Assembly (NCBI GenBank): GCA_002314795.1
Contig: DCHI01000078.1
Coordinates: 7,898 to 71,897 of the forward strand
Direction of reading: 5' to 3'
Length of the DNA: 64,000 bases
Origin: Bacteroidales bacterium UBA1756
Lineage (GTDB): Bacteria > Bacteroidota > Bacteroidia > Bacteroidales > WCHB1-69
Shown here: positions 47,128 through 51,994 of the stretch, one piece after another
Layout of the letters: the number at the start of each line of letters is the position of its first letter
How positions within the stretch are numbered: the stretch's first letter is position 1
Notes under the pieces: model-generated
What the model was told of the DNA's origin: nothing
The model's input: only the letters and a program-made list of their open reading frames with translations
Databases searched by the model: none
Program-made: the position numbers and the translations under genes

Positions 47128-49155
47128 TTACCATTTGATTTTTCCGCTGATGCGGAAACTTCTACCCGGCATCGGATAATTCCGGATGATTTCGTAATGG
47201 CAGTCGGCAAGATTAAGCAACTCGATTTTAAGACCTAACGTAACTTTTTTCTTAATAAAAAAATCGTGCCCAACCGACACGCTTTGATCCACATAGGGGG
47301 CCAGCTCGTTTGCGGAAATGTTCTGCTGCAAGGCATACCTCTTTCCAGCAGCCACAAGCATATAACTAACATCAAACCAAGGTGTTGAAAACATTATTGT
47401 GGCAGATCCGGAATGCAAAGGCGTGTAAGGAATCTGGTGCTGGTACGTCTTTCCTTCGGGGCTCGTTTTGTCAACGGCACGTTGCAACGTATAACAGCCA
47501 TTCAAACGGACGGTCAGTTCCCGAATGATTTGGTAATCGAAAGAGACGGTTGCGTCCAAACCGGTAATTTCCACACGACCATAATTCAGCATACTCCACA
47601 CGAACAGATTTTTGCTGGGAATTGCGACAATTTTATTATTAACCAAATTATAATAACCATCAGCAATCACAGAAAAAGAGAGTCTCTTTTTCAGAAAAGA
47701 TTTGGAATACGAGATCCCGACATCTACCTGATGCGTTTCTTCGGGAAGCAAATTCTTATTACCTACTTCGTTGTAATACAAGTCGTTAAAAGTAGGGAGC
47801 CGAAAAATATTTTTGTAGAAAGCCCGAAAATGCAATGCTTCGGAAAGAATGGGTTGAACCGAGACCGCAACCGAAGGCGTGAATCGGCTCAAATCGTCGG
47901 CGGCCGCTCCCAAACGGGTTTTGTTGACGACACCCGTATGCAGAAGACAGGCACGCACATCAACGTGGCGCGTATCTACAAAAAGACTCAATGCCGACAA
48001 TGACTGGAACCGAGACGGATAAACAAAATCGGAAACATTAGCGCTCATATTACCGTATATCAAGTCGTTAGAAAACGACAATGAGACCATACGATGTGGC
48101 GCATACAAAAACGTATTAGCCAGATAGTACTCCCGTTGAATGTACCGATTATCAACAAATCCGGCGGCATTCAAGTATTCCGGATCCAGATACTTTTGAC
48201 GAGCAAAATTGAACTTTGCGTTCACCTGATAGGCGAATTTTCGGTTAAAACGATTCTCGTAATGCACTTGCCCAAAAGCATTTTCATCAAAAAGACGCTG
48301 TTTGGAGGATGTATTGTAAAACACAACGGCGCCGGGCAAACCGCGCTGCGAATTGTAGTAATAGAATTTTGCATTCAACTTGGAATGGCCATTAAAATCG
48401 GCAAAAATATTCTCTTCCACGGAGATGCTTTTCACATCCGAATTTTGACGTTTTTCAACCGAAGTGCTATCTCCTTTTCCTCCATAAAAAATAGTGAAAG
48501 GGTAGTTCCCGTCCGACTGTAAATAATTCACACTCAGCGCAGAAGAGACGACAGGATAGCTATCTCCTTTTTTTTGAAAGATTCGATTTTCCATCGTCAG
48601 TGACGGATTGAGCAGACCGAAAGAGCCGCCCGTGAAACGGACTTCCAGATTGATGGGCTTCTTGGGAAGAAACGTCGGGCGGACGGTACGAATGTGGATT
48701 AAACTTGCCGCCGCCATCAAACGAGCCGGAAGGAAAATATCATCGTCAGTACCACTATTCAGCGAGATTTGCTCCACATTGAACAAAGTGAATTTTGACA
48801 AATCAATTTGTCCCGTCTGGCAATCGGAAAGGGCGATACCGTCGTACCCGACCACGGTATGTTGGCTACCGAACCCGCGCATAGCCACCGTTTTCATTCC
48901 GCCAACGCCGCCGTAATCCTTAATGACAATGCCTGCGAACAATTTCAAGACATCGGAAACTTGCAACGACGGAACGTTCTCAATATCTTTTTTTTCAATT
49001 ACTTGCAAAGAAGAAGTGGCCGTCAGCGGGGCACGGACTCGCCCCGCCGACACGCCGACCTCATCGATTTGATAGGTCGTGCTATCTATCTGCGCCATAG
49101 CCGTCAACAAGACGCTGCACAGCGAAAAAGCCACTACTACTTTTAGGATTTTCAC
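47128..49155 (-). CDS. TonB-dependent receptor, BtuB-like (last gene of the riboswitch operon)
   Basis: 675 aa with a signal peptide, a TonB-box-like IDEVGVSA and a plug domain (MRGFGSQHTVVGYDGIALSD). It ends with a terminal aromatic residue (...ISGKIKW) and lies downstream of the cobalamin riboswitch. Confidence 0.85.
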   Translation of the reverse strand: MKILKVVVAFSLCSVLLTAMAQIDSTTYQIDEVGVSAGRVRAPLTATSSLQVIEKKDIENVPSLQVSDVLKLFAGIVIKDYGGVGGMKTVAMRGFGSQHTVVGYDGIALSDCQTGQIDLSKFTLFNVEQISLNSGTDDDIFLPARLMAAASLIHIRTVRPTFLPKKPINLEVRFTGGSFGLLNPSLTMENRIFQKKGDSYPVVSSALSVNYLQSDGNYPFTIFYGGKGDSTSVEKRQNSDVKSISVEENIFADFNGHSKLNAKFYYYNSQRGLPGAVVFYNTSSKQRLFDENAFGQVHYENRFNRKFAYQVNAKFNFARQKYLDPEYLNAAGFVDNRYIQREYYLANTFLYAPHRMVSLSFSNDLIYGNMSANVSDFVYPSRFQSLSALSLFVDTRHVDVRACLLHTGVVNKTRLGAAADDLSRFTPSVAVSVQPILSEALHFRAFYKNIFRLPTFNDLYYNEVGNKNLLPEETHQVDVGISYSKSFLKKRLSFSVIADGYYNLVNNKIVAIPSKNLFVWSMLNYGRVEITGLDATVSFDYQIIRELTVRLNGCYTLQRAVDKTSPEGKTYQHQIPYTPLHSGSATIMFSTPWFDVSYMLVAAGKRYALQQNISANELAPYVDQSVSVGHDFFIKKKVTLGLKIELLNLADCHYEIIRNYPMPGRSFRISGKIKW

Positions 49156-49167
49156 CTATAAAAGACA

Positions 49168-50616
49168 TTACATTTTTACAATCCGTGCCACACGCCCATT
49201 CTGTTGAATGAAATAGATACCTGCGGGGTACGCAGACATATTCACGGTCATACGTTCTTCGGACGCGACCACGCGCATCAATTCCGTACCTACCGAATTG
49301 TACAAAACCACCGTTTCTCCCAAAACCGTTTCCACCGTCACATTAGCGGTACAAGGATTCGGATGAACGGAGAGCGGCTTCGTTTCATACTCACTGACAG
49401 ACGTTTGTCCCGGAGTCCAGCCATTGAGGACACAAACTCCGTCCAAGTCAAAACCACCAGAAGCGAAATTCGTCGGGTAGGGATCATTGATGATGTGATT
49501 GTTTTTATCACGTGAAGCAACAGCGGGATCAATAGAGCCGATGACATCAATAAGTTTCACGTGCGTAACATTATTAACATCTAATAACTCGTTGTCAGCC
49601 AATTCATCCAAATCGAACGGAGTTCCCCAACCCACACGATATTTTCCAGCCAGATTGTGCAAGTCACGCGGATCAGTGCCACCATTGTTATCTATCTGGA
49701 CATCCGCGGGCGTATTGGAAACAGCAGGGAAGCGGACGTAGTTCACACCATCGGAACTGACTTCCACAAAAGCCAATTCCAAGAAGGAATCATTCAAAGA
49801 ATTTTCAAAAATAGCGAAATCATAGCCGTCACCATTTTGAATCGGAATATCAAAAGTCAAGATGGCAACGCCGCTGTCACCCAAGCTAACGACATCCATC
49901 GTACTTTCTGTGGCAGCGCCAACTGCGTCGGATTCAGCACCATACGAAACGAAAACGTTTGGAACGGTTATATCTTGCAAACCACGTTCTATCTGACAGT
50001 TGGTGGCCCAGCCCAAGATGGCAGGGTCTTGGCAGAAGATGGCCTGACAACCTTCCGTCCCAACGGCACCGTCATACTTAGTAGTGTCCACAATGACCGT
50101 ATCTGTCGTCGTCGTGTCCGAACCACCTAAGGAGCTGACGGGAAGAACCGGAGTCGTCCAAGCACAACTGCTCCAATCTTCGGAAAAAATGCCACAGGCG
50201 TAACCGCCCCATTTCACCACATCTCCATTCACAATTTCCTGTGACTCATAGCCAACTTGCGCCATCAGACTATTGACATTATACATCGGGAAATCGCCAT
50301 CCATCGACAAATCATATTCTTCATCGTGATAAAAAATATTGTTTATCGTCCCGCCGCCACCTTCATAGGTAAAGCGAGGGTCGGCTGCTGCAATGGAGTC
50401 CATCATTTCAGAAACAAGCAAGGTGGAATTTTCAAAACGGAAGCCCCAAGCCAAAGCCACTTCCGGACTACACCAACTGACAATCAGAATGGCTTGATTG
50501 GAACCTTCGCCAATCCAATATTGAATTTGATCTGCTGAAATAGTTGCATCGTCCTGCGCTTTCATCGTTCCAAAGAACAGGCCTACAAAGAGTAGTGATA
50601 ATAGAATTTTTTTCAT
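49168..50616 (-). CDS. Secreted protein of unknown function with T9SS type-A CTD (middle gene of the riboswitch operon)
   Basis: It has a signal peptide [21 protein letters not shown] and a central [11 protein letters not shown]...[19 protein letters not shown] domain. The C-terminus is [15 protein letters not shown]...[18 protein letters not shown]. Confidence 0.8.
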   Translation of the reverse strand: [482 protein letters not shown]

Positions 50617-50648
50617 AATAGTAATTTAATAGATTGATTATAAGGTTA

Positions 50649-51722: not shown

Positions 51723-51785
51723 CCTTCCTCCTTTTACTGTTTTTGGGAGGATAATGTAAAGACGCAAAAGCGACCTAATGAAAAA

Positions 51786-51978
51786 GCTTACCTCCCGAAG
51801 CTTTCCACAGCAACGATGTGGCAGGTTTTCTGACTTGTCCCCCTTGGACGCCTTCCCGTCATAAAACGCTGACAGTGACTTATTTGTCCAAGGTTTTGCG
51901 GAACTTACAGCAGCGGGTACTGTGCAGGAATTTCACCTGCTTCCCTCTCAAGATTCACGATGAATCTTTCACCACAAA
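51786..51978 (-). promoter_or_regulatory. Cobalamin (B12) riboswitch
   Basis: The reverse strand carries the conserved core AGAGGGAAGCAGGTGAAATTCCTGCACAGTACCCGCTGCTGTAAG. It also carries GTCACTGTCAGCG...GACGGGAAGGCG and the B12 box AAGTCAGAAAACCTGCCAC (plus strand 51818-51836). It sits between a promoter box and the first operon gene. Confidence 0.9.
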
Positions 51979-51986
51979 ATCGGCGG

Positions 51987-51994
51987 CAAAAGTA
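51987..51994 (-). promoter_or_regulatory. -7 promoter box driving the riboswitch operon
   Basis: The reverse strand reads TACTTTTG, immediately upstream of the riboswitch. Confidence 0.6.

Follow-up and report, generated by a model that had tools for sequence, protein, structure and literature searches.

The window analysed here comprises 64,000 nt of contig DCHI01000078.1 (GCA_002314795.1, Bacteroidales bacterium UBA1756; positions 7,898-71,897) and contains, on its minus strand, a three-gene operon that is led by a cobalamin riboswitch and combines the corrinoid transport proteins BtuG and BtuB with a 482-aa protein carrying the export signals of the type IX secretion system (T9SS). We consider it likely that this operon is a riboswitch-controlled system for outer-membrane corrinoid uptake, made up of a BtuG-BtuB core and one T9SS-exported accessory capture protein, called the cargo below. 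A role of the T9SS cargo in corrinoid acquisition, perhaps as an anchored or released binder, had been suggested by the original prediction, which was made from the DNA letters alone; riboswitch linkage and domain matches lend this suggestion support. The cargo is built from an N-terminal module (N module), a ~240-aa domain absent from Pfam that we name CEN, and a C-terminal sorting domain (CTD). The features of the operon, in the order of transcription, are:

51987-51994, minus strand: Bacteroidota-type -7 promoter box TAnnTTTG, TACTTTTG, directly upstream of the riboswitch (read from the sequence)
51803-51991, minus strand: cobalamin riboswitch aptamer RF00174, B12 box included (Rfam match)
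51723-51802, minus strand: expression platform (predicted folds)
50649-51722, minus strand: btuG (357 aa), encoding the surface lipoprotein that serves as the lid of BtuB and has a seven-bladed beta-propeller (PDB and Pfam)
49168-50616, minus strand: gene of the 482-aa T9SS cargo, with signal peptide, DUF4430-like module, CEN and CTD (sequence and profile searches)
50557-50616, minus strand: Sec (SPI-type) signal peptide, cargo residues 1-20 (read from the sequence, MKK...TMKA/QDD)
50122-50553, minus strand: N module, cargo residues 22-165, DUF4430-like, putatively corrinoid-binding (PF14478 and AlphaFold2 (AF2) model)
49381-50091, minus strand: CEN domain, cargo residues 176-412, the conserved core of the family (family alignment and AF2 model)
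49171-49368, minus strand: type A T9SS CTD, cargo residues 417-482 (TIGR04183 and PF18962)
47128-49155, minus strand: btuB, TonB-dependent corrinoid transporter, 675 aa, GTG start (PDB and Pfam)

Three minus-strand open reading frames (ORFs) lie downstream of the riboswitch, at 50649-51767, 49168-50616 (482 aa) and 47128-49155 (675 aa), and the intergenic spacers of 32 nt and 12 nt between them agree with the layout given originally. The first ORF most likely starts at the ATG at 51722, giving 357 aa, since a GGAGGA precedes this codon and an identical 357-aa protein is on record (P0267 in public data). Pfam matches place a YhcG-type nuclease gene upstream of the operon and mutS2 downstream, and the operon therefore has three genes. 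As had been noted, btuFCD genes are missing from it; none was found in the operon or among 22 further window ORFs scanned with Pfam, several window ORFs lying outside that scan.

The first and third genes were originally described as a propeller lipoprotein and a BtuB-like TonB-dependent receptor of 675 aa, and both descriptions hold. The best PDB match of the propeller protein is BtuG1 (8blw_B; E 5e-84, residues 22-356), with BtuG2- and BtuG3-type entries following at E 1e-18 to 1e-21. It matches Pfam DUF5074 with 53.5 bits and has the lipobox LFFSC. We thus observe directly a propeller homologous to BtuG1, BtuG2 and BtuG3, with a lipoprotein signal, in the same operon as btuB. The receptor has Plug (PF07715) and TonB_dep_Rec_b-barrel (PF00593) domains and is nearest to characterised BtuB proteins, its best PDB match being BtuB1 (8blw_A; E 1.3e-180), which aligns end to end over residues 7-671. 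The B12-receptor models TIGR01779 and NF007926 are its top NCBIfam matches, both scoring far under their equivalog cut-offs. A search for BtuG-BtuH fusions among homologues of the window BtuG returned stand-alone propellers only, and a BtuH-type (H) extension is absent from all 43 BtuG ORFs of the related loci described below. Besides the known BtuG-BtuH fusion, a 530-aa protein (P0392) was seen in which a BtuG propeller is fused to a DUF4465 (BtuJ) domain.

The leader was expected to contain the full core of a cobalamin riboswitch with its B12 box, and the Rfam search proposed as a check gave a match well above the gathering score: RF00174 aligns over its full length (model positions 1-189) with 93.2 bits (E 7e-22), the threshold being 31.5. 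The B12 box, AAGTCAGAAAACCTGCCAC, is located at 51836-51818 (minus strand). The TAnnTTTG box that had been read directly upstream is present as TACTTTTG at 51994-51987, where it appears to act as the promoter; the seven related leaders that were aligned also have TTTG at their 5' end. A consensus scan for sigma-70 promoters and terminators was uninformative, with counts at or below shuffle expectation. In the expression platform, UCCUCC (51746-51751) is able to pair with the Shine-Dalgarno-like GGAGGA (51726-51731) just 5' of the ATG at 51722. This helix is present in the minimum-free-energy folds, whose z-scores are modest (-0.95 and -1.97), and a weak AAAGCUU/AAGCUUU hairpin is predicted at ~51776-51797. 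The folds suggest that the riboswitch probably works by sequestering the ribosome-binding site. For homologues in Bacteroides thetaiotaomicron (B. theta), repression by B12 has been seen in reporter assays (PMC12751083).

The middle gene encodes the cargo, which is identical to the protein P0001 in public data. It was originally called a secreted protein with a type A T9SS CTD, and both signals are directly observed. The CTD scores 27.2 bits with TIGR04183 (cut-off 23) and 25.2 bits with PF18962, just below the cut-off of 27, the relatives scoring 38-43 bits with the latter model. It also matches the CTD of PDB entry 7pzj_A (E 0.006), and a PDB sequence search with the whole 482-aa protein found nothing except this match. 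At the other end, a Sec signal peptide is predicted to be cleaved so as to leave Gln21 as the mature N-terminus; an ..AQ cleavage pattern is seen in most family members. The cargo has no lipobox Cys, so that the N-terminal lipoprotein anchor of BtuH-type proteins is replaced by the C-terminal T9SS CTD. Two more T9SS cargo genes were seen in the window, one encoding a protein of 3148 aa in which SprB repeats are combined with a Por_Secre_tail (13487-22933, minus strand) and one a 552-aa trypsin-like peptidase with a Por_Secre_tail (27447-29105, plus strand); these indirectly support the use of T9SS by this genome.

To see the cargo in its wider setting, we searched 1.84 billion proteins with a CEN profile, which at E<=1e-3 matches 2362 representative clusters; the commonest form is a protein of ~325 aa made up of a signal peptide, CEN and a CTD. 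In GTDB genomes 562 relatives were confirmed by scanning, and the best 80 were analysed as loci. The loci belong to rumen and gut Bacteroidales and to Flavobacteriales, Chitinophagales, Sphingobacteriales and Cytophagales, and cover gut and environmental bacteria. Of 8 sampled loci, 7 have an Rfam RF00174 match upstream on the same strand, and an nhmmer model built from these Rfam hits was then run on all 80. With this model, 66 of the 80 loci proved to have a same-strand cobalamin riboswitch upstream, or 66 of the 72 that are informative, the other eight being cut at a contig edge just before the gene array. All riboswitch matches in the 1.3 Mb of flanking DNA lie upstream of a family cargo gene with which they share a strand. 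Re-checking with Rfam upheld all 14 riboswitch calls examined (81-116 bits; 88-116 bits for the seven weakest-looking) and the absence of a riboswitch from 10 negative loci. Because a Bacteroidota genome has only a handful of cobalamin riboswitches, chance co-location at 66 of 72 loci is excluded. Co-occurrence of the 482-aa family with these riboswitches, proposed as a check on the original reading, is thereby observed directly and across the phylum, mostly together with btuG and/or btuB.

The gene order of these loci points the same way. The cargo gene lies inside an unbroken same-strand array starting at the riboswitch in 62 of 65 loci, and within the riboswitch-led array BtuG was recognised in 36 and BtuB in 20 of the 65. 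In a reverse test, four BtuG homologues were chosen only for their long contigs: all four have a Por_Secre_tail neighbour, and three have an N-module or CEN cargo together with a riboswitch beside them.

The cargo proteins, resolved with hidden Markov models (HMMs) for the N module, CEN, the CTD and DUF4465, also share their domains in many combinations. In gut and rumen Bacteroidales we found either fusions of one to five N modules with CEN and a CTD, as in the window, or two adjacent genes, one for N modules in variable number with a CTD and one for CEN with a CTD. Fusions of CEN with DUF4430-like modules number ~27 proteins. In environmental Bacteroidota, a CEN-CTD gene stands next to a gene for another domain with a CTD, beside btuB and btuG, and this other domain is Pfam DUF4465 in 7 of 7 proteins tested (E 1e-34 to 1e-52). 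CEN is itself fused to DUF4465 in four proteins, in both orders, DUF4465 is fused to the N module in one, and the stop and start codons overlap in several of the split gene pairs. For DUF4465, which is the BtuJ family, B12 binding has been proven biochemically and structurally (PMC12751083, PMC13398666, bioRxiv 10.1101/2025.07.01.662609). Since the domains are joined or placed side by side in many combinations, with a T9SS tail in every case and a B12 riboswitch in front in nearly all, there is strong evidence that the CEN, DUF4430 and DUF4465 cargo proteins share one function.

The original prediction had left a domain of the 482-aa protein unnamed. This stands insofar as no Pfam model covers CEN, which gave no match even at E<=10; a partial identity can now be proposed for both halves of the protein, the N-terminal part being a putative DUF4430-like module and CEN having a short yet significant profile match to BtuH. 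The N module occurs in one to five tandem copies in relatives, in which homologous modules score 25-49 bits with PF14478 (DUF4430; cut-off 23.8), and 6 of 14 N modules match this model at E<=0.1. DUF4430 is the type of the C-terminal, cobalamin-contacting beta-grasp domain of transcobalamin and intrinsic factor (PMC1796856, PMC4350170). The AF2 model of the 482-aa protein has a predicted local distance difference test (pLDDT) score of 87 and orders the module as strands 40-49 and 52-61, helix 68-78, and strands 82-87 and 90-97. This succession of hairpin, helix and hairpin is compatible with a beta-grasp having a beta-hairpin insert after the helix. The N-module profile had no match among PDB sequences. 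We regard the N module as a putative transcobalamin-like SLBB beta-grasp that may bind corrinoid. The BtuJ domain itself was not found in the 482-aa protein: DUF4465 (PF14717) gave no Pfam match, and hhalign of CEN or the N module against DUF4465 gave probabilities of 0.2-0.3%. The idea that CEN is a hidden relative of DUF4465 or of the N module was rejected, the hhalign probability being 0.2% for both.

The CEN domain, with a pLDDT of ~90 in the full-length AF2 model, has invariant motifs that include DFAxFEN, LAGK and GFDLxG. For comparison with BtuH, the BtuG1 propeller of B. theta was rebuilt from a PDB alignment and used as bait to obtain BtuH sequences, from which an H domain of 290 aa was extracted in a register identical to 8blw_B 374-663. 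The BtuH2 domain was rebuilt from its alignment to 7biz_A (chain index + 100 giving the published residue numbers), and the numbering was checked on Gln-333, Phe-334, Tyr-475, His-476, Tyr-510, Asp-522, Trp-577, Ser-582 and Glu-584. With hhalign, a 223-sequence CEN profile matched the BtuH profile with a probability of 79.5% (P 1.5e-5, score 43.0) over 48 columns, CEN residues 241-289 aligning with BtuH2 366-415 (LHVSLGSFGGYIIVGFDHSIPNSGNQYDFCVQGNAF-DGSSEPGIVWVMQD on the BtuH2 side). The best of 30 column-shuffled controls reached a score of 20.6 (P 0.046), and four unrelated-domain controls gave P 0.3-0.7. Within this segment, BtuH2 Asn-399 aligns with CEN N272 and Glu-406 with E280, both invariant in CEN, and Phe-401 aligns with a family-consensus Phe at CEN position 274 that is L in the window protein. 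In BtuH2, Asn-399 and Glu-406 coordinate metals that hold the B12 phosphate (PMC13616437). A Foldseek search with the full-length AF2 model matched 8blw_B, that is, BtuG1 with its H domain (probability 1.0, E 7e-4), together with diffuse multi-domain matches (GH2 enzymes, PAPP-A) that we left uninterpreted. Overall these comparisons make it probable, though unproven, that CEN is a very divergent BtuH-like B12-binding domain; its fold class is assigned tentatively from the models.

A further profile match leads outside the phylum. The window protein and 8 of 8 other CEN proteins match NCBIfam NF033170, the Leptospira LIC_13355 lipoprotein family, with scores of 13-24 bits (cut-off 120), and each match falls on the DFAxFEN..VEVSSDG core (residues 239-300; window 49717-49902). 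Judging from these matches, CEN-like domains with a lipid anchor may exist outside Bacteroidota. The lead to LIC_13355 gave no functional insight.

Taken together, the data suggest the following course of events. When corrinoid is scarce the riboswitch would permit expression, and with enough cofactor the operon would be off. BtuG and BtuB would assemble as in the solved 'pedal-bin' complex, while the cargo would cross the inner membrane by Sec and then the outer membrane by T9SS via its CTD. From what is generally known of T9SS, the CTD would then be removed and the cargo either anchored at the surface or released. We infer that the DUF4430-like and BtuH-like domains would bind extracellular corrinoids and hand them on to the BtuG lid, from which they would reach BtuB for TonB-driven import. 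Such a route would parallel the relay from BtuJ through BtuH or BtuK to BtuG that has been proposed for B. theta (PMC13616437).

Several observations weigh against this reading of the operon. The PF14478 score of the window N module itself is 15.8-17.6 bits, under the cut-off, and every PF14478 match covers only part of the 72-position model. For CEN, the match to BtuH spans only 48 of ~240 columns; a global hhalign alignment of the two failed (probability 0.03%), only the local core aligning, and the nine other BtuH2 ligand residues, which are those used to check the numbering, could not be placed. The domain-only AF2 model of CEN (pLDDT 65) gave weak matches to CBM32/F5-8C-like jelly-rolls, with no BtuH in the top 50, and an HMM-against-sequence search with the CEN profile matched no PDB sequence, neither 7BIZ nor 8BLW_B being found at E<=10. 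The comparison with BtuH that had been proposed as a check is positive at the level of profiles, over a short stretch, and negative in the PDB sequence search. Six of the 72 informative loci have no riboswitch within the flanking DNA examined. Finally, Bacteroidota mostly do not use Shine-Dalgarno pairing, which makes the expression platform uncertain.

A more far-reaching version of the capture reading, which we put forward tentatively and with some doubt, is that the T9SS proteins with CEN, DUF4430 and DUF4465 domains form a phylum-wide secreted 'corrinophore' system of multivalent scavengers that return cobamides to BtuG-BtuB. T9SS would release the scavengers into the medium or onto the surface, allowing capture at a distance, as hemophores do for haem. 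Multivalency is suggested because up to five DUF4430 modules are recognised in one protein and four family proteins exceed 2000 aa. These giants, of 2122-2383 aa, are encoded at L021 1656-8363, L025 4730-11881, L026 5540-11908 and L051 5261-11923; each has several N modules, CEN and a CTD, as well as >1000 residues matched by none of the domain HMMs. If this version were true, CEN would add a new branch, distinct in structure, to the B12-binding domains, linking the BtuH of Bacteroides to a larger, mostly environmental family of 2362 clusters.

Among the explanations that differ from a capture protein, the strongest is that CEN is an adaptor without corrinoid binding, which would dock the true binders (DUF4430 arrays or DUF4465) on BtuG-BtuB or arrange them on the surface, the 482-aa protein being a fusion of binder and adaptor. 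CEN is indeed the fixed element, paired with either DUF4430 or DUF4465 as the binder; in N-module fusions it usually lies beside the C-terminal anchor and hence nearest to the membrane; the stop/start overlap of the split gene pairs suggests a stoichiometric complex; and the CEN-BtuH match is short. We nevertheless judge an adaptor unlikely. The metal- and phosphate-site residues of BtuH2 fall within the aligned segment and are invariant in CEN, which would be unexpected for a pure scaffold. Moreover, a lone CEN-CTD protein is the only ORF recognised after the riboswitch in some loci (e.g. L060 and L067), and domain order varies in the DUF4465 fusions.

An enzymatic role of the cargo, in which it would strip corrinoids from carrier proteins of host or microbial origin or remodel them ahead of uptake, is far less probable. 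Liberation of corrinoids was an option in the original prediction and found no support: searches of Pfam, NCBIfam and PDB sequences matched no catalytic family, and the fold matches are non-catalytic beta-sandwich binding modules. Hydrolases are common among T9SS cargos and one of the neighbouring cargos in the window is a trypsin-like peptidase, but the family is common in Bacteroidota of soil, freshwater and sea, where host carriers such as intrinsic factor are irrelevant. The least credible alternative, an adhesin or other surface protein unrelated to B12 and merely co-transcribed with btuG and btuB, draws on the weak matches of 8/8 CEN proteins tested to the LIC_13355 family, which has been studied only as an adhesin (PMC11891782), but those matches are far under the cut-off (15-24 against 120 bits), the riboswitch linkage extends over at least four orders of Bacteroidota with all matches on the same strand and upstream of the cargo gene, and the cargo is fused to known types of B12-binding domain.

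The related loci showed several further arrangements. Two same-strand matches to cobalamin riboswitches occur in each of two loci, L026 (5347-5488 and 12036-12180) and L030 (3091-3226 and 5118-5260); in L026 both lie inside one cargo-gene array, which is reminiscent of the riboswitch located internally ahead of btuB1 in B. theta. In five riboswitch operons the cargo genes are directly followed by the gene of a recurring coiled-coil protein of 290 aa that has weak TelA-like matches (L026 15122-15994 and equivalents in L023, L033, L036 and L051). In five operons btuG is followed by a Peripla_BP_2 (BtuF-like) gene of ~415 aa (L071 13266-14516, and L041, L045, L057 and L062), so that some relatives link the periplasmic step. 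A Flavobacteriales riboswitch operon has a Diphthami_syn_2 gene (L072 10245-10967) between its DUF4465-CTD and CEN-CTD genes.

Elsewhere in the window, a 172-aa ORF without a Pfam match lies between btuB and mutS2 (46609-47127, plus strand); it ends one base before the stop-codon coordinate of btuB and may be spurious. A whole-window Rfam scan found a tRNA gene at 60044-60114 (plus strand; RF00005, 57 bits). At 1147-3774 (minus strand), a 519-aa carboxyl-transferase gene adjoins another gene, which has an OAD_gamma domain and weakly matches a lamin-tail domain. By their domains the two look like a methylmalonyl-CoA or oxaloacetate decarboxylase, which would fit a succinate-to-propionate pathway, one that needs a B12-dependent mutase.

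Competition for B12 shapes gut, rumen and environmental microbial communities, and current models of B12 capture in Bacteroidota come almost entirely from B. thetaiotaomicron, with its reliance on surface lipoproteins (BtuG, H, J and K). The window locus and ~70 related ones suggest that many other Bacteroidota, including rumen Bacteroidales, Flavobacteriales, Chitinophagales and Sphingobacteriales, send accessory B12 proteins through T9SS, which would thereby be tied to micronutrient acquisition. Three kinds of domain are mixed in their cargo proteins, namely a transcobalamin-like module, the BtuJ domain and a large domain without annotation, possibly a distant BtuH. This provides a functional hypothesis for >2000 protein clusters without a Pfam model, and candidate new high-affinity B12 binders, some of them in cultured species such as Taibaiella chishuiensis and Brumimicrobium oceani.

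The known system closest to the window operon is locus 1 of B. theta, which encodes BtuB1-BtuG1 (PDB 8BLW; PMC10404256, PMC12751083). The two share the riboswitch-controlled btuG-btuB core, BtuB1 and the BtuG1 propeller being the closest solved relatives of the window proteins, and in both the stretch between propeller and btuB codes for a BtuH-type domain, a probable one in the window. In BtuG1 (663 aa; BtuGH) the propeller is fused to BtuH, the gene lying just upstream of btuB1 (PMC10404256, PMC12751083), whereas the window propeller stands alone and the H-like domain is very divergent and part of a separate protein, in which it follows a DUF4430-like module and precedes a T9SS tail. As the H domain of B. 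theta occupies the position of the separate cargo gene here, synteny fits CEN as a BtuH-like domain. The window operon also lacks btuFCD, btuJ, btuK and btuH1.

As proposed for the cargo, BtuH2 (BT1956; PDB 7BIZ; PMC8941943) is an accessory surface protein of a B12 locus in which extra domains are followed by a globular domain of ~270 aa. It shares with CEN the motif SLGxxGxxxxxFxxxIxNxxxxYDFxxxxN...ExxxVxVxxD, which includes Asn-399 and Glu-406 of BtuH2; ~48 columns are confidently aligned, and no mapping is possible for the remainder of the B12 pocket. An N-terminal lipid with PKD spacers anchors BtuH2, in contrast to the C-terminal T9SS signal of the cargo. With BtuJ1 and BtuJ2 (DUF4465 beta-jelly-rolls; PMC12751083, PMC13398666, bioRxiv 10.1101/2025.07.01.662609) the cargo may, by analogy, share a role in first capture outside the cell, and T9SS-CTD DUF4465 proteins are the usual neighbours or fusion partners of CEN in environmental Bacteroidota. 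In the window protein the DUF4430-like module fills the DUF4465 slot, and the BtuJ proteins of B. theta differ in being lipoproteins enriched on vesicles. The N module and its tandem copies match PF14478 in part and so resemble the beta domain of transcobalamin and intrinsic factor (SLBB clade, DUF4430; PMC1796856), as does the predicted topology, in which a beta-hairpin that follows the helix is typical of the transcobalamin-like SLBB clade. They differ in having no alpha-domain partner and in forming arrays of 1-5 copies on a T9SS cargo, the window copy being sub-threshold.

Until now BtuG, H, J, K, L and X have been described as accessory proteins, all but BtuX with a predicted lipoprotein signal (PMC12751083, PMC13616437). 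Our search of the literature for T9SS together with cobalamin, B12, BtuB or riboswitches found no description of such a cargo (the full text of subscription journals being outside its scope), and we found no mention of T9SS or secretion in the literature on DUF4465 and BtuH. As a general class, nutrient-capture proteins exported by T9SS resemble the cargo in having a Sec signal with a mature N-terminal Gln and a type A CTD, and in acting with a TonB-dependent receptor from an adjacent gene. The cargo would differ from this class in having corrinoids as its ligand. Known from earlier systems, then, are the core of the operon and its logic; what appears to be new is the route of export and anchoring and the set of binder domains, one of which is a large unannotated family.

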